NCBI GenBank assembly: GCA_032718475.1
Contig: JAUCBJ010008053.1
Location: 1-42,651 of the forward strand
DNA length: 42,651 nt
Direction of reading: 5' to 3'
From: Nemertoderma westbladi
Lineage: Eukaryota; Animalia; Xenacoelomorpha
A model generated the notes under the pieces. That model saw only the letters and a list, made by a program, of their open reading frames with translations. It was not told the origin of the DNA and ran no database searches. The position numbers were made by a program, and so were the translations under genes. This document shows positions 13,188-42,651 of the stretch, piece by piece. The first letter of the stretch is position 1, and the number at the start of each line of letters is the position of its first letter.

Positions 13188-13726
13188 TGTGACGGGATCC
13201 AAGAGGGATCCCGGTTTATCCGGTTTTAGTTCACGCGTCCCCGCCGTGTATAAAGAGTAAATGAGTTTATGCTGTTCGTCGTATATAATATTAGGATATG
13301 CAGATATAGATATAGATATAAGATAATATTGTCGTATACGGAAGGCGGGATACGGTAACTAAAGTCCCAGTCCTTCCCTAGCTAAACTATTGTAACCTAA
13401 TCTAGCACCGGTATTGCACTGAGATAACTGAATTGGTATGATTACTGCCAAGTGGCTATATTGCACGGTTGGCCTTATTGCTACTCAATCGATGCCTTTC
13501 CCCCCTCCTGATTGGTTGATACCCTTGTTGGCGCCCTTTGGAGTGTTCCCGTTCACTCCACCTGTTCTCTCTGGGTTAGGGGTTTGGCCCCTGACCCTCA
13601 TTGTGTGTTTCCTTCCCATTCTTATTGGGATAGCACGAGTTGGTTAATTACCCAATCTCATGGCTCCCAATATTGCTTATCGGCTTACAACTTTATGGGG
13701 TGTTAGCGGGATTGAATAAGCTAACA
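13188..13726 (-). repeat. Full LTR copy of B, flanked on both sides by CGCAA
   Basis: TGTGACGGGATCC...GCTAACA; near identical to 30502-31042. Confidence 0.95.
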
Positions 13727-14256
13727 CGCAAGGTGTGCGAAGTGCGGTGCAAAACATCATCTCTTGTTGCACACTGAATTCGAAAGAAACAGCCCGAGTC
13801 AGGTAACTGATTCCGAACTACATGTCCAATTCAGTGATGTGAACGACACTGACCAAAGTTCTGAGATGGAAGGATTCTATACGGATGAATTCTCCGACGA
13901 AGATGAATCCTGTTACATGATAAATACCGCAGTGTATCGAGCACTTACGTATGAAAAAGACACAGACAGCGACCTCACCCTAACTACTTCTGATCGACAA
14001 CCATCTTGGAAAGCGCCAACTTCCAATGTAGGAATCCGAGAATTTCCTGTAGTACAGTTAAGGGTCCACGGACCTAAAAGGAGTTATATAGTGAACACCC
14101 TCCTTGACTCCGGTAGCACAGGAACATTCATCGACAAAGAACTAGCCGAAGACATCTTTGCTGGACAACCCAAGTTCCGAACTAAGTTAAACATGTCAGG
14201 AATTATGCAGGTTTGGAAATCTACAGTAATAGCCGATTATTATGTAGGTGCGTTGT
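13727..14256 (+). repeat. 530-bp duplicate of the C gag-protease flank
   Basis: Appears identical to 31043-31572 and gives the same translation, LHTEF...YYVGAL. Confidence 0.95.
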
Positions 14257-14436
14257 TCCCGTTCACTCCACCTGTTCTCTCTGGGTTAGGGGTTTGGCCC
14301 CTGACCCTCATTGTGTGTTTCCTTCCCATTCTTATTGGGATGGCACGAGTTGGTTAATTACCCAATCTCGTGGCTCCCAATATTGCTTATCGGCTTACAA
14401 CTTTATGGGGTGTTAGCGGGATTGAATAAGCTAACA
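14254..14436 (-). repeat. Partial (183 bp) 3' LTR of B adjacent to the PPT
   Basis: Matches 13544-13726 and is joined to the duplicated flank through TGT microhomology. Confidence 0.9.
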
Positions 14437-14474
14437 CTCCCCCCCATGCTATCTTCCCGGTAAGAAGATAGCAT
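14437..14474 (-). promoter_or_regulatory. Polypurine tract of B plus adjoining 11-bp stem-loop
   Basis: The minus strand reads ATGCTATCTTC-TTACCGG-GAAGATAGCAT GGGGGGGAG|TGTTAG. Confidence 0.85.
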
Positions 14475-15125
14475 CAACCAAAAAGTGCGCTGCAATCCCG
14501 CTGGATCCCGATCTAGTATCGGGTGTGGGGTGGAATTCTTTTCTCTCGGAGCCGGCTTTAAAGGCCGCTCCCTATGGGTATGATAACGCTACCCTGTGTG
14601 CCTGGCGTCTCATGTCGGGCCGATCGCGCTCACCTCTCACGCAACTTTTGTTACCCCCAACACTTCCGCCCCATCTCTTCTTCACTCTCATCCTAACTCT
14701 CTCATACACTCGGACCTCCTCGTCCCTCACTCAGCCTCTCATTCTCCCCCCCCCCCCCCCCCCACACTGGAATTGCGTCCGCACTCTCTCCGCACTTCGC
14801 ACCTATTACTCTGTCCCTCAACCCTACTCTGACTACCTCATCCTTCTGACGAATCTCCCCCCCCCCTCTTGTGCCGTCGCACTCAAGAAGTGTGAAATTG
14901 TCTGGTGTCTCGTCCATAGTGCCATAGTCAGTTTACCCCCCAGTCCCAGTAGCTAATTGAGAAAGGTTGTATGACTATAGTACTTACTCCGAATGTATAT
15001 TTGTAGATTACTCATTGCTACGTACATACATACAAATTGTACTTATATGATTATTCGCATTAATTAAATTTGTACATATTTCGCACGTCTCACGTGGCGC
15101 CTTCCAGGCGCACTACATCAAAGCC

Positions 15126-15958
15126 TCAGTCCATCCCTCCTTGGCGTCCGTGGTGTCCCCGAAAGTTGCACTTCGGACATCGGTTCTGCAACCGTGGACA
15201 CGCTCCCATCCTGTGGCTCGTCTCGTGGCAGTAGAGACAGCTGGTCCCTTTCTGGAACCTGTACAAGCAGCTCCTTTCCTGGTGGGTCTGTCTCCCACAG
15301 TAGCCGCAACCGAGTACCAATGTCTCCCGCCCCACGTCGTCTTTCATCCCAAGCGATCTCCGCGGTCTGTGGAGTCGCTGGTAGGCGAACTTCTAGACGT
15401 TAGCGTCCCTGTCTACATCGATCTCCTCGCCCCTCCCGGGCATCGTCTCTCCGAATACTACCCGTGGTGCCGTCCCCGGTTGCTTGCCCAACCTGATAGT
15501 GCTCCCCGCGAAATCCATCGCCGGCTCCTCGTGCACCCAGGCCCGCTTGCCGGGTTTGTCCCAGAAGGCTCTCGCCCCACTGGCCGTCACCACCCTCCCG
15601 CCAACCCAGTCCGTGTCTGAGTGGCCTATCCTCTCGATGGGCGGCATCTCTCCAAACTCGTCGTCGTCCTCGTCCTCCTCTCGCAGTGGTCCCAACCCCG
15701 GTATCCCGGTGGACCCACTATGTCCCTTCCCGCCTTGGCTCTCGCCCGTAGCTCTCCATCCCTCCAACTCCCTTAACTTCTCTCCTCTCTCACAAGTTTA
15801 CCTGCCATCTCGAACTCTGCCCGATCGCTCACCCGAAGGTGGTGCCTTGCCAAGGCGCAAACGTGATGAGTGATGGGTTTAGGTGGTTTAAGTTCAGTTC
15901 GATGGCCTATCTCTTTCTGAATTTCTGAGTTATTGCCTATTCTTACTACTGTTACCAT
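15126..15958 (-). pseudogene. Additional ORF downstream of pol in B, with tandem CCHC-type zinc knuckles
   Basis: CGYCGRQTHQERSC, CLYCHETSHRMGAC and CPKCNFRGH. ORFs 15393-15767 and 15126-15347 share one frame across a TAG. Confidence 0.7.
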
Positions 15959-16224
15959 AATTTGTTCCCCTTCTTAGCCCTATTCTTATTCTAATTTTAT
16001 TTTTAATTTCAATCCTACTGCCTTACTGCTTCCTATTGATTATTCTATTCCCTAATCCACATTCTGGCCTACTCTGTGGGCCTATACAGTACAGCAGTGT
16101 GCGTCGTGTGGCCACACGATTTACCCAGCTGTACTCATATGCCCCCCTCTCGCTACTAACGCTACTAACTGCTAACTAATATCTATATCTTATATACCCT
16201 TCTACCTCTTACTCTCTCTCTCTA

Positions 16225-16625
16225 ACTAACGGTACTACGTACCCTAACTCTAACTCTTCTCTAACGGTACTACGTACCCTCTAACTCTCTAACTAACTAA
16301 CGGTACTTACGTACCCTCTAACTCTCTAACTAACTAACGGTACTTATGTACCCTCTAACTCTCTAACTAACTAACGGTACTTACGTACCCTCTAACTCTC
16401 CTCTAACTAGCGGTACTACGTACCCTCTAACTCTCTAACTAACTAGGTACTACGTACCTTCTAACTAACTAACTAACTAGGTACTACGTACCTTCTAACT
16501 AACTCTCTAACTGGCGGTACTACGTACCTTCTAACTAACTCTCTGACTGGCGGTACTACATACCCTCTAACTAACTAACTAACTAGGTACTACGTACCTT
16601 CTAACTAACTTCTGCCTACTAACTG
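16225..16625. repeat. ~30-bp minisatellite between pol and the extra ORF
   Basis: About a dozen GGTACT(T)ACGTACC cores separated by CTAA/CTCT runs. Confidence 0.85.
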
Positions 16626-16649
16626 CGTACCTACCATGTACTATTATTT

Positions 16650-19600
16650 TTATTTTATTTTTATTTTATTTGTGTGGGAAGGGCGTCTCGCCCTCAATCC
16701 CACCCCCCTCAGTCCAAATCTTGGACGACTAAACTCTACTCTAACTTCTAGCAGACAGCATTTGCCTACTGCTCTCCTGTAGGTTTTCCTGTCCTTCGCA
16801 CCTATCTTACCACCTATCCGCACTTCTACCGATCGGACTCTTCCGTCCTCATCGGAGTAGGTGCCTACAACTCTCGCCAACTGCCACTGGTTGTTGATGA
16901 TAGTATCATCCGTAACGATTACGAGATCTCCTACTCTTAACTCCCTGTTCGGCTTCCTCCACTTGCTTCGCTTATGGAGCGTGGGTAGGTATTCTTCTAC
17001 CCACCTCCTCCAATACTCTGCGCTTATTGCTTTAGCGACTTTCCAACTTTGGCGGGAGTGTATGTCATCTGGGTCTACACCCCGCATATCGATGGTCGCT
17101 GGCCTTTCCATCAGGAAATGGCTAGGCGTCAGCACGTCTAATGACTCAGGGTCATCATTCTCCGGATATAGCGGTCTGCTATTAATGATCCCCTCGCATT
17201 TCGCAAGTACTGTCCGTAAGACGTCCTCAGTGACCATGTGGGTGTTCATTAGCTTCGTCATTAGATGCTTTGAACTGCCCACCAGTCTCTCGACGCATCC
17301 TAGTGTATGTGGTGCATACGGCGTCCTTCTCTCCCACTTTACTTGTCGTCGTCTCATGGCTGCCCTGACTTCTTCTCCCTCCAAGATGTCCAAGGCCTCT
17401 GCCATCTCACTCTCTGCGCCCACAAAGTTGGTGCCGTTGTCGCTGTATATCACTGCGATCGTCCCACCTTTGCGGTCCCTAAACCTTTCTAAGGCGTTAA
17501 TGAACGCTGATGCGGTTGCATCTTGGGCGAGTTCTATCCCTACCGCCCGCGTGTTGTTGCATACGAAGATAATGCCGTAGCGTTTCTCCGTGTGTCGCAT
17601 CACTCTGATCTTTATCGGCCCGAACATGTCCACACCGCAATGCGTAAATGGTGGGTCGTGCTGTCTTACCCTACTCGCCGGTAGTGGCGTCATCTCCTGT
17701 ACGGCTCGCTCCTTCTTCGCTCGTCGGCAGGTCTGGCACTGCCCCACTACCGCTTTTACCTTTTTCCTCAGTTGTTTGACCCAATAGGTCCTCCTTATCT
17801 CTGTGAGGGTTCGGTTGGTGCCCCCATGCAATATCGATTTGTGGGAGTCCCATATAATCTGGTGGACTATTGGCGATCCTGTAGGAATGATGATGGGTTT
17901 CGGTGGTACGACTATGCTGTTGTTGTATCCCACCCTGGAATTCATTACTAGAATCCCGTCGTCATTGAGTTGTGGCGACAGCGTAATCAGCTCGCTGTCC
18001 CGTCGGAGGTGCTGTTGGTTACCGATGCGTTCCACCTCGTCGCCGTAGTTCTTCCGTTGTTCATAGCGGATCACTGCCTTGGCCGCTCCTTCCAGATCTA
18101 TGGTTGTCCTGATCTTCTTGTCCTTGCCAACTCCCGCAAGGAAATTCCCGAATGCTCTCCAGTACACCACTAGTTTCTTGGTCTTATACCAACTAGAACT
18201 GTAGCTGAGGAGTTTATCCGTCGGGTTATCGCACAGTTCTCGTCCTGGTTGCACGTCCCTAATCTCCCTCACCATCTGGGAGTATATCTCTTCTCCCTCT
18301 GAATCTCCCTCTTCTCCCTCTGACACTACTTCTGTGCCCGGGTCCACCTTTCTCATCGGCGGCCAGGCCTCCTTATCGCTCAGAAATTGTGGCCCATGTT
18401 GCCACAATACTTCCTTCTTCAAGAAAGTGTGGCGTACCACGCCCCTCGACAACAAGTCCGCTGGGTTCTCGTCCGTTGGGCAGTAGTGCCACCTTTCCAG
18501 TTCTGTGCTCGCCCTTATTTCGTCCACTCTATTCGCGACGAATATCGGGTATCTCGTCCTTTCGTTGTGTAGCCAACCAAGCACTACCATGGAGTCCGTC
18601 CAGTAGTGTGTCTCCACTATGTTGGGAATAGTATCCACTAGGTAGGCTGTGGCTCTTACTCCTAGTCTCGCGGCTGTCAATTCTAGCTTAGGAACTGATG
18701 CTGAATCTGGTGGCGTTGACTTTGCTTTGCTAAAGGCTAGTCTTGGCTTGTGAGCCCCCTCTCGTTGTACTAAGTAGAGTGCCGCTCCGTACGCTTCCAA
18801 CGACGCGTCGGAGAACATGTGTAGGTCCAGATTCGTCATGTTCCCATCCGGGAAATACACCCGTGGCATGTTGTATGTTCCCATCTTCTCCAAGTCTCCT
18901 GTCCACTTGCTCCACTGTTTCTTGATTTCCTCTGGTACCTCTACGTCCCACTCATCCTTCAGTTTGTATACTCTCTTGAGTATCTGTTTCCCCGTGACTA
19001 ATAATGGGGATGCTAGGCCTAGGGGATCGTATATCCTTGCTATATACGATACATAGCCCCTCTTCGTGTGGATGTCTGCGCCCTCCTGGCTCAGCTGATA
19101 CTTCAGTTCGTCTGTCTCTCTATCCCACACGATTCCCAATGCCTTCTGTTGAGATTCTGTTCTCTTAATCGCCATGTCCTGCCCTTTGGCTGTTGTGGGA
19201 TTGTCCATGGTCGATTCTGGTCTCCTGTCCTCTATCGCCTTAATAAATTCTTCCGAACTGGATTGGAATTTGGTCAGGTTAAAGCCGGATCCTTTTAGGA
19301 TGTCGCGAACCTCGCGCCCTGTGTCCAGTATCTCCTTAACCGTATTTCCAGACTCCATTCCGTCGTCTACGTAGAAGCCGCGTCGAATCATATCGACGGC
19401 CCTACTGCTGTATCTATCTTCCTTCCCCTTTACTGTGTCTCTCACTGCCATAGTCGTTGTAAATGAAGACGACTTGGCCCCCATGTTCTGTACTACCATC
19501 TTATATGCCGGTATTATCGACGGTTCTTCCTCGCCGTTATACCATAAGAAGCGCTGACTGTCGCTATCTTCCTCCGTTACACGGACTTGGTTGAACATGC

Positions 19601-19652
19601 CTTCTATATCACACGTGAAGGCGTGTTTTCCATTTCTAAATCTAAGTAACAC
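16650..19652 (-). CDS. pol: Element B Pol: reverse transcriptase, Pao-type RNase H and integrase
   Basis: DIEGMF, FYVDD, IYDPLG, FSDAS, PKLEL, WTDS, NPADLLSRG, H..HGG..CQTC, VDMFGP, SDNGTNF and a DUF5641-like EYLPTL...W C-terminus. Confidence 0.97.
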   Translation of the reverse strand: MLLRFRNGKHAFTCDIEGMFNQVRVTEEDSDSQRFLWYNGEEEPSIIPAYKMVVQNMGAKSSSFTTTMAVRDTVKGKEDRYSSRAVDMIRRGFYVDDGMESGNTVKEILDTGREVRDILKGSGFNLTKFQSSSEEFIKAIEDRRPESTMDNPTTAKGQDMAIKRTESQQKALGIVWDRETDELKYQLSQEGADIHTKRGYVSYIARIYDPLGLASPLLVTGKQILKRVYKLKDEWDVEVPEEIKKQWSKWTGDLEKMGTYNMPRVYFPDGNMTNLDLHMFSDASLEAYGAALYLVQREGAHKPRLAFSKAKSTPPDSASVPKLELTAARLGVRATAYLVDTIPNIVETHYWTDSMVVLGWLHNERTRYPIFVANRVDEIRASTELERWHYCPTDENPADLLSRGVVRHTFLKKEVLWQHGPQFLSDKEAWPPMRKVDPGTEVVSEGEEGDSEGEEIYSQMVREIRDVQPGRELCDNPTDKLLSYSSSWYKTKKLVVYWRAFGNFLAGVGKDKKIRTTIDLEGAAKAVIRYEQRKNYGDEVERIGNQQHLRRDSELITLSPQLNDDGILVMNSRVGYNNSIVVPPKPIIIPTGSPIVHQIIWDSHKSILHGGTNRTLTEIRRTYWVKQLRKKVKAVVGQCQTCRRAKKERAVQEMTPLPASRVRQHDPPFTHCGVDMFGPIKIRVMRHTEKRYGIIFVCNNTRAVGIELAQDATASAFINALERFRDRKGGTIAVIYSDNGTNFVGAESEMAEALDILEGEEVRAAMRRRQVKWERRTPYAPHTLGCVERLVGSSKHLMTKLMNTHMVTEDVLRTVLAKCEGIINSRPLYPENDDPESLDVLTPSHFLMERPATIDMRGVDPDDIHSRQSWKVAKAISAEYWRRWVEEYLPTLHKRSKWRKPNRELRVGDLVIVTDDTIINNQWQLARVVGTYSDEDGRVRSVEVRIGGKIGAKDRKTYRRAVGKCCLLEVRVEFSRPRFGLRGVGLRARRPSHTNKIKIK

Positions 19653-19718
19653 CTCTATGCCCGAATTGTATATGTTTGGGCCTTCTAACAGGTAGTCGTT
19701 TAAGCACTTTCCGTCGGT

Positions 19719-21457
19719 CTATGCCGATGCGTCGACTACCATCCGTAGTTTACCTTTCTTTGGATCTAAAGCCACGTGTAGTGGCAGGTAATATGTCCTG
19801 TCCGTGTTTGGCTCGTCGACCGGTAACTCCACGGCCCATCCTTTCTCGACGTACTTCTTAATTGTTCTGTGGATGTACTCATTCTTCTCGGGGCTCCGTT
19901 TTAGTGTTTGTTTCAGTTTGCGGAGTCTCGTGAGTACCATCCCCCTATTGTCGGGCAGCGGTATCTTCTGTAGTTTCCATACCATTCCTATAGTATACCG
20001 CCCCTCATTGCATGTCATCGATTCCTCCACGCTTTGTAAAGCTTGCTTGTCTTCTACTGAGGTCCCGACCCCGGTTTCTTTCAGTCCCTCGAAATCCTGT
20101 CTGAGCAGTCTTTTAAGCTGCTCCTCTGCTCCCTCGTCACCCATTTCCTGCATTGTTCCCGTGAACATGCATCCTGATGTCTCTGACATCCTAAATGGTA
20201 TCTTGCTCTTAATTGGACCACTCAGCGTCCACCCGAATGGTGTTAATATGGCCACCGGATCACTCTGCTTGTCTTCGCCGAAGACCGTTTGCATTCTTTC
20301 GTGGGCCGTTGGGCAGTCCATGCCTACTATGATGGACACCTTCCTAACATCCACGTCTGGGATTGAGAAGTCAATGTTGTCCAGGAATTTATACTGCTCG
20401 ACCTCGATGTTGGTTGGTCGCCTGGCATTAATATTAATTGACTCTATCACTTGGATGGGGTCGATGGTTGCCCCTAGTCGCATCCTGGTGCCACTGCTGC
20501 AATTGCGCACCGTCCTGTCCTCATCTCCAGGATCTCATCTTTGCTAGAGATGGTTGTTACCGCCATTCTGCTTGGCCTCATTCTCAATCCTATCTCTTCG
20601 GCCACCCATTCCTCGACTAATGTGAAGGCAGCTCCACTATCAACCAGCATTAGCGTTGTTACTGATCGATTGCCTTCCCCAATCACTCGCACGGGTACTA
20701 CTCCAAGTAGCACCGTTCCTCTCTTCTTCGCTCCTACTGTGCTCGTCGCCATCGTTTGGCCTCTTCTCTGACCAAATTTTATCGGCTTCTCCTTGCACTC
20801 CCTTGCTCTATGTCCACTCATTACACATCGCGAGCAGATATTATTGCTCAACGCATAATCTATCTGATCTTGCCTAGGTAGCGCCTGCCAGTACCTGCAG
20901 TTCATGGTTTGATGAAGCGCATTTGCGTGTAGCTGGCATTTGCTCTTTGGGTTGTAGCCCTCTTTATACAGCGCATTGCGTATCGCAGTTGCGTTCGTAC
21001 CAAAGTCCCTACTATTCTTATTGTTTGGATTCAGCCTACTGGACGTACTGGGGTTATGTTTATTCGTGCTGTTATTGTTCCCCTGTCCGTTCCATGGTGT
21101 TGTCTCATCTTCGGCTAGCTGTGGACTTGCAGTCCCCTGCGTCGCTGCATATGGCAATGATTGCCTGAGCCTCGGTAATGCGTTTGATGTATTGTGCTCT
21201 GGTTTCGGTCTATGGTAATCCGTCTTCGGTCCCTTTCCCAGGCTATCTTCGCTGTAGACTGGGTCAGTTATTAGCTCAGCCTCGTAGTTTAAGAAGTTTG
21301 ACATTTCTTCTAAACCCGGTTCCGCACCCTTCTTGTCTCGAGTGGAGAAAGCAATTTTCCTCCACTTGTTGCGCATCCAACTCGGTAGTGCCTGCGCTAT
21401 CGTGGTGATGTTATTGGACGCATTGAGCTCGTATGGCGCGTCTAGCGTCTTCAGCAC
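19719..21457 (-). pseudogene. Element B Gag C-terminus, aspartic protease and RT N-terminus; frameshift near 20500, in-frame TAG at 19719
   Basis: CSRCVMSGHRAREC, LVDSGA, TPFGWTLSGP and YYLPLH...KLRMVVDASA, which is in frame with the pol ORF. Confidence 0.9.
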
Positions 21458-21461
21458 GATC

Positions 21462-21620
21462 TGTTATATTATTTACTGTATGTGTCTTTTGTCTAGTTAC
21501 TGTTTTATAGTTTGTGCTAGTACCGTGTTTGAGTCTGTATGTGTTCTTCATTATATGCAAGCACCACTGTACAGCTGTACCTACCAGGTCAGCAGGTACC
21601 GGTATCTTTCTACTTTAACA
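21462..21620 (+). repeat. 5' LTR of E
   Basis: TGTTATATT...TTTAACA; same as 26227-26385. Confidence 0.95.
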
Positions 21621-21621
21621 A

Positions 21622-21633
21622 TGGTAGCAGAGC
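21622..21633 (+). promoter_or_regulatory. tRNA-iMet primer-binding site
   Basis: TGGTAGCAGAGC, one base after the LTR. Confidence 0.9.
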
Positions 21634-21799
21634 ATTCTGGCATTACTGCATTAACTGAAACAACCCGGTCTGCCAGTGTTTACAGTTTAATCAACTAGCC
21701 TTGTGTGTTGAGTTGAGTTGACGTTGACGGTACTGCTGATGCTGAATTTAATACCGGTACAGTAATACCGGTCAGCCGGTATTAATGTAGGCCTATTAA

Positions 21800-21992
21800 A
21801 GCGTGATGGCGCAATACTGCAATATCTGAATATATGAATGCGTAGGGTGCGTGATGGCGCAATATAGCAATCAATGAAAGCGTGATGGCGCAATACAATG
21901 ACAGAATGAAAGCGTGATGGCGCAATACAATGACAGAATGAAAGCGTGATGGCGCAATACAATTGTACAATGAATGCGTGATGGCGCAAATG
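21800..21992 (+). repeat. Six GCGTGATGGCGCAA motifs (~32-bp period) in the Copia leader
   Basis: Copies at ~21801, 21849, 21880, 21912, 21944 and 21976. Confidence 0.85.
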
Positions 21993-22171
21993 AAGATATA
22001 TTCCGGTAAAAAACAAAATTAGGTCTGACAGACTACCGGTACCGGTACTGGTTTCTTGAACTAAAACCTTCCCAGGCCTAGGGCATTATCAATTATGGCT
22101 CTAGCAATCTCCCCACTGTAGTATAGCAGTGTAGTCCTGTAGTCTACTTTAAAAATTAAAAAAAAACAATT

Positions 22172-23164
22172 ATGGCAACTTCTGCCGGGCATGGCAGAAT
22201 TCCACCACCCCAATTTAACTCTGAAACTGGGAGTTACAGAAGATGGAAAAAGGAGTTAATAGTATGGAAAACAATAACTGAAACTGCAAAGAATAAGCAG
22301 GCACTCACTGTCATACTTAACCTGAAGGGATTAGCTAAAGATAAAGCTCTTGATTTAAACATAGCCACTTTGCAAGTTGATGATGGCATTGATATACTTT
22401 TATCAGAATTAGATAAAACTTTCAAAAAGGAACGGGAGGAGGATGCATATGAAACATTTATAAAATTTCGAAATTTTACAAGAAATCATGGCATCAGTAT
22501 AAGAGATTATATAGTTAAATTTGAAACATGTGTTTGTCATCTTGCTGAATTTGACTTAAATTTTAATGATGCTATTTTGGCAGCAGAGTTAATACACAAA
22601 GCTAATCTTACACCAGCTGAGCGCAAAATAATATTAGCTACTACTAAACTAGAATTCAAAGATGTTAAGAAACATCTTCTACGAATGATGTCTGATATTG
22701 GTTCAGACAATGTGAACACAAGTACTACATTAGAAATACATGACAATGAAGGGCCTGAATCAGCCCTTTGGGGAACCAACCCTAGGAAGTTCACTTCTGC
22801 CAGTAAACCTTATACAAGTGGAACGGGGTACATCCCTAATAAATTTAAATCAAAACCATACAACAGTCAAATGTTGCCTACACCTTTAAGTAAGCCTAAG
22901 GGACCAAGTGCTCAAAATCGTTGTAGAATATGCGATTCTACTAGACACTTTCAACGAGATTGTCCACACAGAGTTAGTTGTAACATTTGTGAGTCAATCC
23001 TACATCAATCTCAGGCATGTCCTCATGATGATAACGAAACCTTAGCAGTTAAAGACAATATTGATACTGGCAATAGCAATACCTATAATGATACAGAAGA
23101 TGTTTTCCTCTTGCAGCATGTATTTCATCAACATGCATATGAGGAAAGGAACTGCATAAGGTAA
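22172..23164 (+). CDS. gag: Copia Gag with two CCHC knuckles
   Basis: PPQFN...YRRWKKEL.VW N-terminus, CRICDSTRHFQRDC and CNICESILHQSQAC. Confidence 0.9.
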   Translation: MATSAGHGRIPPPQFNSETGSYRRWKKELIVWKTITETAKNKQALTVILNLKGLAKDKALDLNIATLQVDDGIDILLSELDKTFKKEREEDAYETFIKFRNFTRNHGISIRDYIVKFETCVCHLAEFDLNFNDAILAAELIHKANLTPAERKIILATTKLEFKDVKKHLLRMMSDIGSDNVNTSTTLEIHDNEGPESALWGTNPRKFTSASKPYTSGTGYIPNKFKSKPYNSQMLPTPLSKPKGPSAQNRCRICDSTRHFQRDCPHRVSCNICESILHQSQACPHDDNETLAVKDNIDTGNSNTYNDTEDVFLLQHVFHQHAYEERNCIR

Positions 23165-23202
23165 CTGAGGTAACTGCCCCATACTCACCATTTAGCAATG
23201 GT

Positions 23203-25653
23203 ATGACCGAGCGTCATAATGGCCTCATCAAGGAAATATATCAAAGGATAAAGATGGAAAATCCAACTTATAAAGATTATAAGATTTTGCAAATGGCTTC
23301 CTTTGTTAAAAATGCCTGGCCTGCTAATAATGGATTTTCACCACATCAAATAATGTTTGGCAGAGGGCCAAATATAGGAAATATACTTACTGATAATATA
23401 AGTGCATTAGACAATGCAACTTCTGTAAGTAAGTCTGCTATTGATCATATAGCATTACTGAATCAGGTTCGAATAGAATTTGCAAAAGCGGATTCATCAA
23501 CTAGGATCCGGAGAGCATTATTAAAGAATGTAAGACCTACGAATAAAGGCATTTCTATGGGTGATAAAGTATACTATTTTTCTTATCAGGATGAAAAATG
23601 GTGTGGTCCAGCGAAAGTAGTTGGGATAAATGGAGCCGAAATATTAGTAGCTCATGGCTCGAAATACATACGAACCCATAGATCCAAAATACGAATTGAT
23701 AATGGTTATTATAATCAATATGTTTCAAATGAGAGTCCATCAGCTGATAGTAAAGAGGATTTACTATCAGAACCCTGCCAATACATTGAAGATGATGAAA
23801 TAGTACACTCAGAACATCTTATACAAGATCATGGCAGCTATAGCAATGATACTAATGAGAGAGAAACCAATGATATCCAAGATACTGCTAATTATAGCAG
23901 TAGCTTGAATTTACATCCCTTGTCAGACAATGAAATGACTAATGATAGTGTGAATACTCCTATCTCTAACTTGCAGTCTATGAATTCTAGTAATACTATG
24001 GAAGATTGTCGGAATGATGAAGAACACACAGAGCCAATTGTAGATAGAAAGCAATATCCCCGCCGAGTACATAAACCACCTGAGCGATATGGCTACTCTG
24101 CCGGTCATATTTCACAGAATAACATTGACAAGAAAATACAAGAAGAATATAGTTGTGAGGTAGCTGAGGCAAAAGAAAAAGAACTCTCCAATTGGCTGGA
24201 TAATAATGTATATACTGAAGTTGATGAGAGTGAATTATCACCTAATGCCAATATTGTATCAACAAGATGGGTAATTGACTTAAAATATGTTGATAGTATT
24301 CAAACTATAAAGGCTCGCCTTGTAGCCAAAGGGTTTCAAGATAATGATACTCCTATATCCTTTGCACCAACATGTGAGAAGATGTCAATACGGACTTTGC
24401 TTTCAGTTGCTGCTAGATTGAACTGGAAATTATGGATAGTGGATATAAAACGTGCATTCTTACAGAATGGCAAATTACCGGATGAGAGGATTGTTTATGT
24501 GATTCCACCAGAAGAATATTTGAGAGAGAACAAGAGATGTGTATACTGGAAATTGAAGAAGTCAATTAATGGTTTACATGATGCATCACGACATTGGTTT
24601 GTTAAACTTAAAAGTGAATTAGAGAAACTAGGCTGTCAACAAAACAAACTAGACCCTGCTATGTATTCCTTAATGTCAGTAGAAGACAATCTAATTGCAA
24701 TCATTGCCACACATGTCGATGATATAGCAATAGCAGGAAGCAGTGAAATATCATCTACATTTATTGATGGAATCCAATCAAATCTCAGTGTTGGAAAGAT
24801 AACAGATGTCAGTTGTAATTGGGTAAAATTTCTTGGTGTTTTCGTACGTACAATGGAATATGGTGGATTCGAAATTTCTCAAGATCCTTTCATTCAATCT
24901 TTGTCCTGTTCAAGCATGGAATCCTTTCAGAATTCAGAATCCAAGGATATATACCATTACTTCAAATCACTGCTTGGGAAATTGATGTGGATATCCACTA
25001 ACACTCGTCCCGACATAGCCTTTTTTGTGGGAACCTTATCACAGATTCAGCAACCAACGCTTAATGATATTTGTAGCTTGCACAAAATTGTCAGAAAATT
25101 GAAATGCGAAATAATTACCATCAAATTCCCTACTACTAATGACAAACTGGAATCTTTATATATATTTACAGATTCTTCATTTGGCAATCCATCTAGGATG
25201 GGTATCTGTATTTTTTGGGGATGTCATTTGATATATTGGTGCAGTCGCTGCACAAAGCGGGTAACAAAGAGTACATTATCTGCTGAGACCTTTTCACTTG
25301 TTGAAGGTGTCGATTTGGGAGGATACTTGCATGTCTTTCTTCATTCACTAACTCATTATTCGTATCCATTTGTTTACTTATCAGACCATAGGGGTCTGAC
25401 CCAAGATGTGCAGAGTGGAAAAATGTCGCAAGAGAGGAGATTATGCATTGATTTTGCATATATTCGGGATAACATTCAACTGGAAGACTTGATTTGGATA
25501 CCTACTAAACTACAAATCGCAGACACATTAACAAAATCAAGAAGTCTGGCGTCACTATTGTTAAAACGTATTCTAGATGATCCCACTTGTCTATATGAGT
25601 GTATATCTATTTTAGCTGAACACAAACATAGAAAGAAAGTAAATGTATTTTAG
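23203..25653 (+). CDS. pol: Copia Pol: integrase C-terminal half, RT and RNase H
   Basis: (TAPYSPFSNG)MTERHN, STRWV, KARLVAKGF, DIKRAFLQ, GLHDASRHW, HVDD, TRPDI, FTDSS and QIADTLTK. Confidence 0.95.
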   Translation: MTERHNGLIKEIYQRIKMENPTYKDYKILQMASFVKNAWPANNGFSPHQIMFGRGPNIGNILTDNISALDNATSVSKSAIDHIALLNQVRIEFAKADSSTRIRRALLKNVRPTNKGISMGDKVYYFSYQDEKWCGPAKVVGINGAEILVAHGSKYIRTHRSKIRIDNGYYNQYVSNESPSADSKEDLLSEPCQYIEDDEIVHSEHLIQDHGSYSNDTNERETNDIQDTANYSSSLNLHPLSDNEMTNDSVNTPISNLQSMNSSNTMEDCRNDEEHTEPIVDRKQYPRRVHKPPERYGYSAGHISQNNIDKKIQEEYSCEVAEAKEKELSNWLDNNVYTEVDESELSPNANIVSTRWVIDLKYVDSIQTIKARLVAKGFQDNDTPISFAPTCEKMSIRTLLSVAARLNWKLWIVDIKRAFLQNGKLPDERIVYVIPPEEYLRENKRCVYWKLKKSINGLHDASRHWFVKLKSELEKLGCQQNKLDPAMYSLMSVEDNLIAIIATHVDDIAIAGSSEISSTFIDGIQSNLSVGKITDVSCNWVKFLGVFVRTMEYGGFEISQDPFIQSLSCSSMESFQNSESKDIYHYFKSLLGKLMWISTNTRPDIAFFVGTLSQIQQPTLNDICSLHKIVRKLKCEIITIKFPTTNDKLESLYIFTDSSFGNPSRMGICIFWGCHLIYWCSRCTKRVTKSTLSAETFSLVEGVDLGGYLHVFLHSLTHYSYPFVYLSDHRGLTQDVQSGKMSQERRLCIDFAYIRDNIQLEDLIWIPTKLQIADTLTKSRSLASLLLKRILDDPTCLYECISILAEHKHRKKVNVF

Positions 25654-26208
25654 TTTTTTTTTTTAGATTTATATTGGGGTTCATCATGATGATGTGGGTT
25701 GAATGTTATTGATATATTATATTGTTGAAATGTTTTTCCAAATATTTCTTGCAATTATCGATACAGTAATTGATATTTTTGGAAAGGCGGATGATAGATA
25801 GACAATACTACGTAATTCCGAAAGACAGTACTGGACTTGTTATATTATATATCATATGTATGTTACATAGATTTAACTGATGGATATGCATATATGTTAG
25901 CAAGACGCTAGGCATATGTTATTTTATATGTCGTCTATTGTTATATGTTATTGTTGTACATGTGCATGTACAGTATTACGTAATTCTAAGATACATTTAA
26001 TTGGTGGCATTTCCTTGCCATTGTTTTATTTTGGCATTTAACGTATACTGCATACTTTATTTATCCATTTTGTACTTTTAACGCCAATTAAAAAAAAAAC
26101 CGAAGAGATTGGTGATATTGTTATGCTATATATGTTGGTGTGGTATTTGTAGCGTATATTGTCCTATACATACTTGATTTATCCATTTATTACTATGGAC
26201 ACCAATTT

Positions 26209-26385
26209 AAGAAAGACCGAAGAGATTGTTATATTATTTACTGTATGTGTCTTTTGTCTAGTTACTGTTTTATAGTTTGTGCTAGTACCGTGTTTGAGTC
26301 TGTATGTGTTCTTCATTATATGCAAGCACCACTGTACAGCTGTACCTACCAGGTCAGCAGGTACCGGTATCTTTCTACTTTAACA
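26209..26385 (+). repeat. PPT and 3' LTR (26227-26385) of E
   Basis: AAGAAAGACCGAAGAGAT|TGTTAT... Confidence 0.9.
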
Positions 26386-29300
26386 CGATCAGCGCCTTTT
26401 CGACTTTGTTAGCGAAGGTCTTAATGCTAACGGGATTATCCTGTAGGCCACCCGATGTTATGCCCCTCAGCGTCTGCCTGATGATCTTGGCCGGGTGCCC
26501 GTATTCCCTATCCAGTGCCCGCCATGCTGTCGTGAAGCCGCCCTCTATTCCTTGATATTGCCTCACGATATCGTATGCTGGGCCTCCCGTATATACTTGC
26601 AGATATTTTAGGCACTCCGCCTGCGTCAAGTTTTTTGTTAGTATTTCGTTACTATACATGCGCCGAAACTGTAGATATTCTTCCGGCCTACTCCCATCGA
26701 ATTTGAATGGTTCCACGGGTGGTAGCTCGATCCTCGTTTTCAACGCATCGATCAACGTGGCCATCCCCATCGCCTGCGCTTCCAATGGATTCGACGGGTG
26801 CTGTATAGTTTCTCCTGTCTGGTGCGGTTCCTCCGTCCTATTTCTTGATCTTCTCTGACTTGGGTATGTCATCGGGGGTAGCGGCCCCCTCCGTATTTCT
26901 GTGTCACACGACCTGTTTTCATCTAAGGGTCTCGTTGTTCTTGCTCCTATCGGGGTATATTGTTGATATTGTGATGGGGGAATGTCACCCTGTCCCCCCC
27001 CCCCCCCCCACCGGTATGTTTGGTACTGGGGTTGATGTTAATATGTTGGGGCCCATACACCTATCCGCAATAATTCCCCCCTCCCCTGGGTATATGTTAT
27101 GTCCCTGCATGCTGTAGTCATACTGCTGTACTGGTACCGGTATAGGCCTATCAGCTTCTGGCCTACTCGCCGGTATGTATTCCGCGACTTCCGGGTTTAA
27201 TCCCGTTGTCCACGCTATCCTATCGCCTGCATTGCCTCTCTCAGTATGGCCTATGGTATGTGCAGTAAGGCCTACAGTATGTCCTACAGTCTGCATGTGT
27301 TGTTCGGGATCGAAGTTTATTCTTCTCGAATAATCCTCCCCGCGGCTACCGTATTCTCGATCGGTAGGTATATTCCGTCGGAAAGTTTCTCTTCGACCCC
27401 CCTCCTCTACTGTTCTCGTCTTCGTACCGGTACATTGCGTACCCCTCTCATCGGCGCGTAGTGCGCCTCGCCGGGTCGCATCTCTCCGGGGCGACGGCAA
27501 TCTCCCGGAGTCCGACCCCACTGACTCTCCGTCCTCATCTCAACTACCGACGGCTCGCTATCCGTCCTCGCTCTTCTATCGTTCGCGGCGATACCTCTAC
27601 TACTGTCTTCTCCTCTTCTCCTTTCAGTGGAATATTCCCGTTCGTGAGATCTCTCGTCGACCTCCCGGTTAAACCCCACTGTTCTTCTTCCCTCTTCTGA
27701 TCGGGCTCGACGCTTCGTCCGCCCTCTTACGACGTCAACCTGTCTCTCTCTGCTCGGTCGCACGCCGCTGGGGATACTCGCAATCCCCCTATTACTTTCC
27801 GTCGCCGGTTGTTGCGGTTTACCTATTTCGGCCCTCGCACTATCCGCTGACGGCTGTGGGACACTCTCTGCCCCCCCCCCCCCCTTTCGCCGCTAACTCG
27901 CTGTTGTGGGGCTCTCGTAGCCCCCCCCCCCCCCCCCCCACTCGCCACATCTAACTTCGCTATCTCTCATCCCGCCACCATATCCCTCTCCAGTCGACAC
28001 ATCAACCCCACCGCGGTCGGGTTTATTCACCCCCGCCTCTCTCTCTGCTATTGCGTGGCCTACCAGGCCCTCTGCTCCCTGCCTACCGACTATGTGGCCT
28101 ACCAGGCCCTCGCTGGGTCTATTCAACCCAGCCACTCCCTGCCTACTGACTATATGGCCTACCAGGCCCTCGCTGGGTCTATTCAACCCAGCCACTCCCT
28201 GCCTACCAACTACGTGGCCTACCAGGCCCTCGCTGGGTCCATCCAACCCAGCCACTCCCTGCCTACCAACTACGTGGCCTACCAGGCCCTCGCCGGGTCT
28301 ACCTAACCCAGCCACTCCCTGCCTACCAACTACGTGGCCTACCAGGCCCTCGCCGGGTCTACCTAACCCAGCTACTTCCGGCCTACTAACTACGTGGCCT
28401 ACCAGGGCCCCATCTGTCTGGCCATACACGCCCGACGTGTTTACATTAATAGCACCCGTATTGGAAACGGAATTAATTTGTTCGTTCGAAATAAAATCAT
28501 TTGAATTATCTTGCGCGACTACACTATCTGAATTATTTTGTAAATTCGGGCTCGCTGAATTATTTAAGTTATTTGGATTATTTTGTGTAATTGCATTACT
28601 TAAATTATTTTGTAAGTTCGAATTTGGGTTATTACTTTGATTATTTGGATTATTTTGCGTAGCTACATTAATATTAGAATTACTTTCTACATTAATATTA
28701 GGAATGTTCTGATTTAAATTTAAATTACTACCACTAGGTAAAGTATTTCCTGCAATAAAGGTTTGATTAGAATTATCCCATACGGTACTATTAATATTAA
28801 CCACGTCTACTGTACCATTATCATTATTACCCCCCCCCCCCCCCCGCCCGTACGGTCACACCAGTTTTGGGTCTGTCGTGCGGTCCCTGTAAGTGGGGTA
28901 TTAATAAATGTATCCACGGCCCCTGGCTCCTCTAAAATACTCGAGCCAGTCCCGCTCTCTGACGTCCCCGGCCCGCACCAGTTGCAGCTCGTGCATGCGT
29001 CTAATCCTATGTTCCCCAAGCTCACTTTGCCGTCTCTTTAGTTCCTTTTGCTCTCGCTCAGCTTCTGCCATTCTCCTCTCACGCTCCCGCGCGTCCTGGC
29101 CAGCCAACTCTGCTACTCTCCTAGCGCTCTCCCTTCGTCTCGCTTCACGCTCTCTGCGTTCACTTTCCTCCCTCGCCTCACGTTTCTCGCGTTCCGCCTC
29201 ACGTTCCTTTCATTCACTTTCCTCCCTCGCCTCACGTTTCTCGCGTTCCGCCTCACGTTCCTTTCGTTCACTTTCCCACTTCGCCTCACGCTCCTTGCGT

Positions 29301-30433
29301 TCACTTTTCTCTCTCGCCACACGCTCCTCTTGTTCCTTCAACTCTATTTCATCATACTCCCTAAGGCTTCTCAAAGCCCTTTCGGCCTTCTCTCCGGTTT
29401 CTCTAATCAATGCCGCTTCCCTCTCTAGCCGCATTCTCCCCTCCTCTAGCCGTTTATCCATTTCCCTCTGACCTTGCTCTATCAGCTCGAGACGGTACGC
29501 GGCACCTGCCTCTCTCACCAGTCTTTCTTTCGCGGAGGATGTAGCAGACTTATCGGTCACGACGGACTCCCTTCGCCTCCCCGTCCTACTAACTTTCCCC
29601 CGCTTCCCGGAACTTCCTCCGACCGACGAGGCCGAATCCTCGGGGTTAACCTCGGATTCGCCCCCTTCAGGTCTGTTCCAACCCACTAATTTTATACCCC
29701 GGGCATCGACCAAGTATGGCCCTATGTACACTGACGCTACGCTAGGTTCCATACTCCCACATTCCCATAGTTCAAACAGTTCGCTGGCAACCCCTTTTGC
29801 TCTCTCCTCGGCTAGTTCTCTCTGCCCAAAACGCATTAGGTAATTAAAGTGTCTATCCGACTCACCTAGTCGTTTCCTCAGTCTCACCTCGTCTATCTTC
29901 GCCCCTTCCTTCTTAGCGTCCTTTAGTAGTCTCTGGGTCGTGTTGTAGGCCCGTCGAAGTCGATCAGAAACCCCGACGTCCTCGTCGCCGATCTCTCTTC
30001 CGTCTCTCCGGGTCCGACGTCGTACCGGCGGCCCCACCGTCGCCGTTTCGGTGGGCCGTTCGTCGCCCTCGGCCTGTGGCTGGCCGGCGACATCGGTACC
30101 GATATCTCCTTCGTCTCTCTGCGTCCGGGGCCGCACCGTCGGCCCCACCGTCGCCGTTTCGGTGGGCCGCTCGTCGCCCTCGGCCTGTGGCTGGCCGGCG
30201 ACACCGGTGCGTCGACCCCCGTCCCGTGTCGACTCGTCTCCTTCTCCCTCGAGCTCGTTCTCTCTATCCTCCGACTCGACCTCAGGTTCCAGGCCCTCCT
30301 CGTCCTGAACTGCCGGATGACCCGTTACCGATGGGTCCGGCGTTGTGGGCCTGTATCGCCTGGTTGCGGCCTCGCGGATCGTTAGCTCTTCGTCCGGGGT
30401 CCGCGTCGGTGTTATCTCTCCCGACTGACTCAT
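26386..30433 (-). pseudogene. gag: Element B Gag N-terminal region, very long, with a nonsense codon and several frameshifts
   Basis: Starts MSQSGEIT 68 nt after the LTR. Contains a coiled-coil EREARE region, CGA>TGA at 29210, and DUF1759-like FKFDGS...YLQVYTGGPA...EYGHP that rejoins LKTLDAPY across the Copia. Confidence 0.85.
28050..28410 (-). repeat. 60-bp in-frame tandem repeat in B gag (~6 units)
   Basis: EGLVGHVVGRQGVAGL(G/N/D)RP repeats. Confidence 0.9.
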
Positions 30434-30460
30434 CTTTCTTCTGCAGATTTGGTGGCTGGT

Positions 30461-30501
30461 GGTTACTGAGTTTATCTAGGGCGGCAGCTGGGTTTAGTTA
30501 C
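30461..30501 (-). promoter_or_regulatory. Non-tRNA primer-binding position of B, complementary to its own LTR
   Basis: The leader forms an imperfect ~41-nt inverted repeat with 30669-30710, starting at the first base after the LTR. No TGG. Confidence 0.7.
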
Positions 30502-31042
30502 TGTGACGGGATCCAAGAGGGATCCCGGTTTATCCGGTTTTAGTTCACGCGTCCCCGCCGTGTATAAAGAGTAAATGAGTTTATGCTGTTCTTCGTATAT
30601 AATATTACGATATGCAGATATAGATATAGATATGAGATAATATTGTCGTATACGGAAGGCGGGATACGGTAACTAAAGTCCCGGTCCTTCCCTAGCTAAA
30701 CTATGTAACCTTATCTAGCACCGGTATTGCACTGAGATAACTGAATTGGTATGATTACTGCCAAGTGGCTATATTGCACGGTTGGCCTTGTTACTCTACC
30801 TAATCGATGCCTTTCCCCCCTCTGATTGGTTGATACCCTTGTTGGCGCCCTTTGGAGTGTTCCCGTTCACTCCACCTATTCTCTCTGGGTTAGGGGTTTG
30901 GCCCCTGACCCTCATTGTGTGCTTCTCCTTCCCATTCTTATTGGGATGGCACGAGTTGGTTAATTACCCAATCTCGTGGCTCCCAATATTGCTTATCGGC
31001 TTACAACTTTATGGGGTGTTAGCGGGATTGAATAAGCTAACA
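30502..31042 (-). repeat. 5' LTR of B
   Basis: TGTTAG...GTCACA on the minus strand, TCAGTT Inr at 30744-30739, and CGCAA TSD. Confidence 0.95.
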
Positions 31043-32617
31043 CGCAAGGTGTGCGAAGTGCGGTGCAAAACATCATCTCTTGTTGCACACTGAATTCGAA
31101 AGAAACAGCCCGAGTCAGGTAACTGATTCCGAACTACATGTCCAATTCAGTGATGTGAACGACACTGACCAAAGTTCTGAGATGGAAGGATTCTATACGG
31201 ATGAATTCTCCGACGAAGATGAATCCTGTTACATGATAAATACCGCAGTGTATCGAGCACTTACGTATGAAAAAGACACAGACAGCGACCTCACCCTAAC
31301 TACTTCTGATCGACAACCATCTTGGAAAGCGCCAACTTCCAATGTAGGAATCCGAGAATTTCCTGTAGTACAGTTAAGGGTCCACGGACCTAAAAGGAGT
31401 TATATAGTGAACACCCTCCTTGACTCCGGTAGCACAGGAACATTCATCGACAAAGAACTAGCCGAAGACATCTTTGCTGGACAACCCAAGTTCCGAACTA
31501 AGTTAAACATGTCAGGAATTATGCAGGTTTGGAAATCTACAGTAATAGCCGATTATTATGTAGGTGCGTTGTCCACCCCCCAGGATGAACTAGGAGAACA
31601 CAGTATAAGGTCAGTAAAAATGGTGGCGATAAAGAACTTCGCTACCAGCCAAGTAGAACCTTATAACTGGGATGAGGACGATTCCACCCAGCAGCTTAAT
31701 ATACCTAGATTCACCACAGACTACCCTGGAGTGCAAATACTCATCGGCCAAAATGCGCATGAGGCGCTTGAGACATTGGAGAAACGGCCTGCTCAACCGC
31801 AACCACTACAAGCCTATGCGGGAAGAACTAGAGTAGGTTGGTACTTTACTGGCCCTTCCCGTAGAACTCTCATAGAAAGATTACCAAAAGAACAGGTATA
31901 TCAAGTAAAGGAATGGGAAGTAGAGAGCAGTGAGGTAGACGACCCAACTGAGGGAACACCATACTCCTCAGATAATGACAATATTAACTCCAATGTAGAT
32001 CAATGGAGACATTGCCCCGAGACGATTAATCTAGCCGACATCGCTTCCAGAGGAGCAACTCCTCAAGAACTGACAGATACTCCAGACTGGTTAGGTGGAC
32101 CCGACCTCCTAAGTAAAGAAGATGAATGGCCTCCCCATTTTACCACGGCTGAGATTAGACAAGCCAAGGGAGCGGAGAAAGTCAAACCTAAAACCCGGAC
32201 GTGTAAATCAAGGTTATTTAAACCCGTGATAGATCTGTCTGTACTACACATTGCCAGGGACGACGCTGTGGATCTAAACTCCCCCACCGCGAACCGATCT
32301 GTTGTGGAGATCAGAGAGAGAGACTGGAGATCTGGAACACCAGACGTCTCGCCGGGACTCTCACCTCTCCTGCCGGGAGCGATGGACCACTATAGATCCT
32401 GGAATCGGCTTCGTAAGGCCGTCGTGTATTTGAAGTGATGTTTCTATCGTCACTATTCCAGGACGAAGAGGAAACCTGGAATTGTCTTCGAGACACAGCA
32501 GCTCAATCGCCCAGTTGGTCGTTTATGTTTACTGGAAAGAGACCGAGAACTGTCCGGAAACTATGGAAGGCAAGATACTCTTCCCACGACCACCTCCCTA
32601 ATCCAACAAACATCTAG
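31043..32617 (+). pseudogene. Element C gag end and protease fused to RNase H-downstream and integrase-end remnants
   Basis: LLDSGSTGTFI and RTRVGWYFTGP lead directly to QWRHCPETINLADIASRG and SWNRLRK. No YVDD or DDE core. Confidence 0.85.
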
Positions 32618-39803: not shown

Positions 39804-40432
39804 TGTAAGCGGATTCAATTCCCTGCACTACCCAGCGGAAAATGGGCGAAGTGGCATTTTACCAATTATAGTTTGGAAGGTGACATTACCAATAATAATG
39901 TCACCTAATAACCAACTTAGGCGATACACATCGCCAGCCACAAAGAAAGATGAGAGGTCTTAAACCATCTCAGAGGGACAAAGGGGCTAGCAGGGCTAGC
40001 ATGTGGGGATAGTGGCAGCAGGGAGTAGCGAGATAGACATTAATCGGGTTAGCCAATGATGGGAGGGGAAAACAGGTGATTGGAACGCATCTACTGGCCA
40101 GGCCACTCAATACAGTAGCTGTGATTAATATGTGTTAATAATATATAACCGTTGTACTTGTGAATTATGATTCAGTTGGTTTCTATACAGTTGTGAGACC
40201 GGAACGGTTTTTAACCGTCGTCATTACCGTGCTATTATATTCTGACTGTGCTATTATTATGTTCTGTGATTATAACAACTGACACTAAAAACTCAGTTAT
40301 TCCAACGGCCTTCGGCCTATTATATTTTATTCAGACCACAGCCTTTCAGCAGCCTATGGACGCGGCGACGCGTATAATACCAAGACAACACACCGGTCGG
40401 AGTTTAGCAACCAACTCCTAAATCCCGTCACA
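39804..40432 (+). repeat. 3' LTR of D (629 bp) after a G-rich PPT
   Basis: GGGGGGGGGGGAG|TGTAAGC...CCCGTCACA; TATATAA at ~40143 and TCAGTT at ~40172. Confidence 0.85.
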
Positions 40433-41008: not shown

Positions 41009-42651
41009 GAACCATTAACCTAAGTCGTGGAACCATTAACCCATGTCGTGGAACCATTAACCCATGCCGTGGAACCATTAAACCATGTCGTGGAACCATT
41101 AACCCATGCCATGGAACCATTAACCAATGTCGTGGAACCATTAACCCATGTCGTGGAACCATTAACCCATGTCGTGGAACCATTAACCCATGTCGTGGAA
41201 CCATTAACCCATGTCGTAGAACCATTAACCCATGTCGTGGAACCATTTACCCATGTCATGGAACCATTAACCCATGTCGTGGAACCATTAACCCATGTCG
41301 TAGAACCATTAACCAATGTCGTGGAACCATTAACCCATGTCGTGGAACCATTAACCCATGTCGTAGAACCATTAACCCATGTCATGGAACCATTAACCCA
41401 TGTCGTGGAACCATTAACCCATGTCGTGGAACCATTAACCCATGTCGTGGAACCATTAACCCATGTCGTGGAACCATTAACCCATGTCGTGGAACCATTA
41501 ACCCATGTCGTGGAACCATTAACCCATGTCGTGGAACCATTAACCCATGTCGTGGAACCATTAACCCATGTCGTAGAACCATTAACCCATGTCGTGGAAC
41601 CATTAACCCATGTCGTGGAACCATTAACCCATGTCGTGGAACCATTAACCCATGTCGTGGAACCATTAACCCATGTCGTGGAACCATTAACCCATGTCGT
41701 GGAACCATTAACCCATGTCGTGGAACCATTAACCCATGTCGTGGAACCATTAACCCATGTCGTGGAACCATTAACCTATGTCGTGGAACCATTAACCCAT
41801 GTCGTGGAACCATTAACCCATGTCGTGGAACCATTAACCCACGTCGTGGAACCATTAACCCATGTCGTGGAACCATTAACCCATGTCGTGGAACCATTAA
41901 CCCATGTCGTGGAACCATTAACCCATGTCGTAGAACCATTAACCCATGTCATGGAACCATTAACCCATGTCGTGGAACCATTAACCCATGTCGTGGAACC
42001 ATTAACCCATGTCGTGGAACCATTAACCCATGTCGTGGAACCATTAACCCATGTCGTGGAACCATTAACCCATGTCGTGGAACCATTAACCCATGTCGTG
42101 GAACCATTAACCCATGTCGTGGAACCATTAACCCATGTCGTGGAACCATTAACCCATGTCGTGGAACCATTAACCCATGTCGTGGAACCATTAACCCATG
42201 TCGTGGAACCATTAACCCATGTCGTGGAACCATTAACCCATGTCGTAGAACCATTAACCCATGTCGTGGAACCATTAACCCATGTCGTGGAACCATTAAC
42301 CCATGTCGTGGAACCATTAACCCATGTCGTGGAACCATTTACCCATGTCATGGAACCATTAACCCATGTCGTGGAACCATTAACCCATGTCGTGGAACCA
42401 TTAACCCATGTCGTGGAACCATTAACCCATGTCGTGGAACCATTAACCTAAGTCGTGGAACCATTAACCCATGTCGTAGAACCATTAACCCATGTCGTGG
42501 AACCATTAACCAATGTCGTGGAACCATTAACCCATGTCGTGGAACCATTAACCCATGTCGTGGAACCATTAACCCATGTCATGGAACCATTAACCCATGT
42601 CGTGGAACCATTAACCCATGTCGTGGAACCATTAACCCATGTCATGGAACC
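41009..42651. repeat. 21-bp tandem satellite (GGAACCATTAACCCATGTCGT)n, ~78 units, running to the window edge
   Basis: Directly visible and highly homogeneous, with recurrent single-base variants. Confidence 0.98.

Follow-up and report, generated by a model that had tools for sequence, protein, structure and literature searches.

A BEL/Pao retrotransposon of Nemertoderma westbladi, with a leader complementary to its own LTR, probably primes reverse transcription with its own RNA

The window analysed here, a stretch of 42,651 nucleotides of the Nemertoderma westbladi contig JAUCBJ010008053.1, contains a BEL/Pao retrotransposon, hereafter element B, whose features are collected in Table 1. The Pfam domains DUF1759, Asp_protease_2, Peptidase_A17, Integrase_H2C2 and DUF5641 were identified in it, with protease, reverse transcriptase (RT), RNase H and integrase in the order and with the BEL-type domains of BEL/Pao, LTRs of 541 and 539 nt that fall within 0.2-1.2 kb, a polypurine tract (PPT) and a 5-bp target site duplication (TSD). 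The 18-nt site for a host tRNA 3' end that also belongs to BEL/Pao is missing, the leader reading GTAAC from position 30501, directly after the LTR-terminal CA. Element B is assigned to BEL/Pao by its protein lineage only, and its predicted priming departs from the ICTV profile. PF05380 was present in all 120 homologues listed, the closest of which is 35% identical, so that element B is without a close relative in reach; the named homologues are animal, at an identity of only 30-35%. The Pfam search gave no chromodomain hit.

Table 1. Features of element B, with positions in the window
Feature	Position	Strand	Description	Basis
Element B	31042-13188	-	nested within gag-protease region of BEL element A	
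5' LTR	30502..31042	-	541 nt, TG...CA	
TSD	31047-31043 and 13187-13183		5 bp, TTGCG	
TATA-like AATATAG	30769..30775	-	~33 nt 5' of predicted +1	sequence
Predicted initiator TCAGTT	30739..30744	-	putative +1 at 30742	motif only
LTR arm (+33..+74)	30669..30710	-	predicted pairing part of self-primer; predicted cut at its 3' end, C30669	
Predicted stem, 5' side	30658..30668	-	begins directly after predicted cut, pairs with U5	folds
U5 partner of stem and decoy (GTGAACTAAA)	30539..30555	-	inverted repeat I2	ensemble folds
Post-LTR leader (+1..+41)	30461..30501	-	predicted primer-binding site; no TGG	
gag start	29210..30433	-	ATG 30433-30431, 68 nt past LTR	
gag piece with DUF1759	26375..27037	-	split by nested Copia	
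Protease-RT-RNase H-integrase	16650..21463	-	one stop and frameshift; YVDD and RNase H acidic residues readable	
Polypurine tract	14437..14448	-	adjoins TG (14436) of 3' LTR	
Partial LTR (183 nt), then ~530-nt copy of 5' flank	13727..14436	-	rearrangement or assembly join	
3' LTR, whole	13188..13726	-	539 nt	
Second arm copy, 3' LTR	13355-13397		arm end at 13355	

The 3' LTR differs from the 5' LTR by 13 mismatches and 6 gap columns (~97% alike). The 3' end of the element is doubled, the PPT being followed by a partial LTR (183 nt), then by the 5' flank (31572-31043) copied without mismatches and lastly by the whole LTR, with the join at a 3-nt microhomology; this could be a template switch (full and solo-LTR alleles) or an assembly join. 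In the 2.2-kb 3' region (14437-16650) there is a tandem array with a 37-nt unit, together with a broken minus-strand ORF (~15130-15800) in which CxxC-H-C motifs recur; no env was seen.

Apart from element B, the window holds the surrounding element A (7521-36934), which is seemingly without RT and RNase H and has only gag, protease and a small part of the integrase; its LTRs are 99.3% identical and begin with GG rather than TG, with no clear TSD. The nested Copia (21462-26385), which we take to be GalEa-like, is young, with identical LTRs of 159 nt and the TSD CGATC, and has a normal TGG primer site (TGGTAGCAGAGC) one base past its LTR; a homology search with it gave hits at only 25-38%. A sister family, C, is represented by a 3' LTR at 39804-40432 which shares with element B the PPT, the TATA/initiator spacing, the U5 motif GACGCGT and the ATCCCGTCACA end; TATATAA stands at the spacing of element B and TCAGTT at 40172-40177, and there are two candidate arm ends, both in AC, at ~40216 and ~40227. 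The 5' end of C falls outside the window. A 21-nt tandem array of 78 copies (96% identity) occupies 41009-42651 and continues past the window end.

The preliminary description had claimed that no TGG follows the 5' LTR, that the leader is instead complementary to an arm within the LTR and that the pairing begins at the very first base after the LTR, all of which we could confirm; the TCAGTT that it had proposed as initiator near 30742 was likewise found, downstream of the TATA-like motif. Of the 41 leader positions, 32 are identical to the plus strand of the arm region, in runs of 9 and 2, three singles and three runs of 6; no shuffle out of 5000 reached this alignment score, and the pairing begins at leader +1 with no spacer at either end. 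The duplex with the 5' LTR copy has a predicted energy of -37.6 kcal/mol against -24.3 +/- 2.5 for shuffles (0/1000 in each of two sets), and that with the 3' LTR copy of -40.7 kcal/mol. From +1 the pairing is perfect for 9 nt, a length reached by 2 of 1000 LTR shuffles, and when a spacer of 0-5 nt was allowed 5 of 200 were as good. As, out of 1674 41-mers taken from the interior of element B, the best 10 bind at some place in the LTR with equal strength by energy (-37.7 to -43.4 kcal/mol), the evidence rests on position and register and not on energy. No tRNA genes were found within the window.

Several further candidates were rejected. An origin of the leader by inverted copying of the full 74 nt up to the predicted transcription start fails, since leader positions +42..+75 behave like shuffles (1814/5000 by alignment; 137/1000 by energy); a weak alignment signal past the predicted start (80/5000) was one among six alignment tests. 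Pairing of the Tf1 kind at the initiator gave only -3.7 kcal/mol over 9-14 nt between the leader and the region of the predicted start, and a primer built by splicing gave a best match of 8 nt against 9 nt unspliced. Element A was considered as a second case of a leader matching its own LTR (a self-match), and its non-TGG leader (ATAAC...) gave 7 nt, with 126 of 200 shuffles as good.

Folding of the element B transcript from the predicted start (30742) gave helices at leader +21..+41 with pairing probabilities of ~0.8-1.0, and of the whole duplex just the 24 distal nt (+18..+41) are predicted to form readily. In the 5' copy, leader +1..+12 is predicted to be free and the junction to fold into a small hairpin, and the proximal 9-bp helix has a probability of 0.03 at 37 C, which falls to 0.008-0.013 at 15-25 C. 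Taken as two strands, this helix reaches p=0.35 for the arm of the 5' LTR and p=0.92 for that of the 3' LTR; a single difference between the two LTR copies falls inside it, so the prediction shifts with the few differences between them. In the ensemble folds the U5 decoy, which resembles the leader, competes with it for the 3' end of the arm, and the priming helix of the 5' copy is ~2.4 kcal/mol less stable than the decoy pairing (forcing cost, ensemble energy), a gap which in our judgement falls inside the error of the multibranch-loop model. According to the preliminary description, a cut at the arm end would leave a 3'-OH poised to copy U5; the register of the arm is exact, but in the 5' copy the predicted decoy outcompetes the proximal 9 bp, which suggests a switch rather than a simple static primer.

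The preliminary description having proposed conservation of the complementarity in relatives as a check, we compared BEL loci with 30-39% protein identity to element B. A metagenome scan gave a first set of 78 loci (30-37%), of which the 32 with DNA upstream of gag were tested, matches spanning a GT-AG intron being admitted. Seven families (L005, L012, L022, L025, L034, L037/L040 and L039) passed a strict filter with self-matches of 10-11 nt, best-of-all-CA shuffles being as good in 0-6 of 100 each, and L007, L011, L051 and L054 were added when the filter was loosened after the sequences had been read. Together these 11 families (12 loci) carry self-matches of 10-13 nt (0-5 of 200 shuffles each); the LTR end was fixed by two copies only for L037/L040 and by score or eye in the other 10. 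The remainder comprised 6 TGG loci, 13 unresolved loci (LTR partial or leader of another type) and L001, which was dropped because its spurious 13-nt match sits in DNA without an LTR pair. The second set, 28 BEL loci from a prokaryote genome collection (L079-L106), most likely stems from animal hosts whose DNA remained in the bins; 20 were examined, and both LTR ends were found in 5 (3 TGG, 2 non-TGG). No relatives were found among viral contigs.

The letters of the self-match differ from family to family, and among 132 cross-family pairs of leader and LTR just one reaches 10 nt and four more reach 9. In all 11 families the match spans a predicted intron, the leader starts with GT and the arm ends in AC; the TAC|CGTA context of element B recurs in L051 and L054. 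Predicted LTR introns of just 33-38 nt were seen in L007:5651-7336, L051:1-470 and L054:150-360. Between the LTR end and the match there are up to 5 spacer nt in L079:1770-1795, L084:6410-6435 and L085:140-165, and none in element B. The 0-5 nt spacer rule was introduced after L079 and L084 had been viewed, with shuffles given the same rule: L079, which at zero offset was equalled by 62 of 200 shuffles, then has 11 nt (0/200), and L084 has 11 nt (1/200) and needs no splice, as in element B. Where two copies fix the LTR ends, all three non-TGG families (L037, L079 and L084) have an 11-nt self-match, equalled by 0, 0 and 1 of 200 shuffles, whereas the six TGG families reach 4-5 nt. Three further loci of the second set, with inferred ends, have 11 nt (9, 4 and 0 of 200 shuffles).

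The 11 families together with L079 and L084 share with element B a non-TGG leader that matches the LTR of the same element, and in element B and most of these 13 the arm terminates in AC. Their matches are perfect over 10-13 nt and, except in L084, cross a predicted GT-AG intron, whereas element B has a shorter perfect run (9 nt) and spliceless pairing that extends to 41 nt. The earlier claim of a duplex much longer than in Tf1 applies to element B itself; as most relatives have ~11 nt with a predicted splice, the long duplex is its special form and not the rule. One clade inside the self-matching branch (L024:120-140, L043:55-70 and L044:15-35) has a non-TGG leader of the form TTCG...AAAA, for which no self-match was found in the available LTR parts and which is possibly a third primer type. 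In trees, self-matching and TGG loci are split by well-supported branches. Element B is a long branch that FastTree groups with a TGG locus and a quick PMSF tree places on the self-matching side; in a 15-row tree it lies outside both groups (AU p=0.45 for joining TGG).

The missing tRNA site, the 41-nt complementarity to its own LTR and the shorter self-matches of relatives make an own-RNA primer likely, and we consider it probable that a fragment of the element's own transcript serves element B as primer for minus-strand DNA synthesis. On the model of Tf1, transcription would start near 30742, and a cut after C30669 would leave a capped primer of ~74 nt, freed when the element's own RNase H cuts at the 3' end of the arm. 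The distal 24 nt are predicted to pair stably; the last 9 bp would compete with the U5 decoy, and closure up to the junction would need a chaperone, likely Gag/NC. RT would then copy 167 nt, from A30502 to C30668, and strand transfer would proceed via R downstream of the cut. Transfer through R past the cut requires the poly(A) site to lie further into the LTR, and AATAAA or ATTAAA 11-49 nt 3' of the arm end in 4 of the 7 relatives examined fits this; the R-U5 of element B has no canonical AATAAA, only variant hexamers at ~30585, 30544 and 30534. The suggestion of a mechanism analogous to that of Tf1 in a BEL/Pao lineage gains from the missing TGG, the register at +1 and the non-TGG relatives, and loses from the proximal helix at p ~0.03 in the 5' copy, from the shorter perfect run of element B and its varying place in the trees, from the lack of a canonical AATAAA and from element A, whose leader is non-TGG yet has no self-match.

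That weak helix would suit priming by a small RNA of the host, such as a tRNA fragment, with the LTR-leader duplex as a packaging, dimerisation or translation structure, as the duplex is predicted strongly in its distal part (+18..+41) and in the 5' copy leader +1..+12 is left unpaired; Copia lineages with half-tRNA primers are known according to the accessible part of PMC6317226. The TGG expected from a full tRNA 3' end is absent, however, and no Rfam family matched within 30300-31100. In the anticodon loop of tRNAs, position 37 is a purine; on inspection, the leader complement misfits such a loop, having no purine there. Moreover, the leaders of the relatives vary in step with their own LTRs, and self-matches that differ in letters between families are not expected from a fixed host RNA, so that we regard a host primer as unlikely.

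The better pairing of the 3' LTR arm with the leader (-40.7 kcal/mol; p=0.92) would agree with a transcript that ends at that arm (13355) and primes with its own 3' end, no RNase H cut being needed. Against this, no poly(A) signal was seen on reading just upstream of the arm end of element B, the hexamers past the arm end in 4 of 7 relatives point to an RNA end beyond the arm, and a poly(A) tail would block the 3'-OH; we hold this reading to be distinctly improbable. Slightly less credible still is a match due to chance or to a functionless old inverted duplication in a copy that simply decayed, since, although the element is broken by the nested Copia, frameshifts and a stop, 9 of 41 positions are mismatched and some interior 41-mers bind the LTR equally by energy, the register at leader +1 is exact (0/5000 shuffles), unrelated families share the geometry and LTRs ~97% alike leave little time for the leader to decay.

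Priming by a piece of the element's own RNA may be taken further, to the more speculative and rather doubtful proposal that a large BEL/Pao branch has left tRNA priming and primes at an internal RNase H cut after AC, mostly via splicing, with element B as a two-state RNA switch. The 24-nt distal helix would serve as a toehold, the U5 decoy would hold the arm end until a particle chaperone flips the arm, and the flip onto the primer site would time the onset of reverse transcription. If own-RNA priming is true, self-priming reaches a third LTR superfamily, a self-primer can be long and internal and not just the first 11 bases, and there is an explanation for BEL elements in which finders that rely on tRNA detect no primer site; self-primed elements would presumably also evade tRNA-fragment control. 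The cut is predicted to the nucleotide (C30669).

In the literature searched, no report of self-priming in BEL/Pao was found, and a mention in Repbase, GyDB, supplements or subscription journals is possible. PBS and tRNA terms do not occur in the accessible parts of the Sinbad paper (PMC554778) and of a BEL/Pao survey (PMC3118150), and where self-priming is mentioned in those of PMC8220671, PMC3601003, PMC6934838 and PMC5443660 it is tied to other groups. A search for the 11-nt motif gave, among the papers listed and judged by title, nothing on retroelements or tRNA.

The ICTV 2021 profile of Belpaoviridae puts the primer site at 18 nt, for host tRNA-Arg or -Gly, and the size at 4.2-10 kb, and calls BEL/Pao replication poorly understood and tRNA-primed (PMC8742986). 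Element B resembles this family in gag-protease-RT-RNase H-integrase, BEL Pfam families, LTRs and PPT, and differs from it in lacking a tRNA site and in its size of ~12.2 kb without insertions. Self-priming has been predicted from LTR-leader complementarity in plants for Tcn1 (gypsy) and TAR/Houba/Osr-1 (copia), which belong to other superfamilies and hosts; that survey, in its accessible part, covers plants, from which BEL/Pao is absent (PMC6317226). Tf1 takes as primer its RNA's first 11 bases, released by an RNase H cut (PMC7175516, accessible part), and self-priming has been proposed for Tj1 (PMC4600332, accessible part). Like Tf1, Tf2 and Tj1 (Tf1/sushi, Ty3/gypsy), element B has no tRNA site and a leader complementary to its own RNA; in these accessible parts, release of the primer by RNase H is shown for Tf1 and proposed for Tj1, and for element B it would follow by analogy. 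In contrast to the first 11 bases of Tf1, the arm of element B is internal (+33..+74 from the predicted start) and its 41-nt duplex interrupted, and its domains are those of BEL/Pao and not of a chromovirus. Element B most likely acts like Tf1, yet falls outside the Tf1/sushi group.
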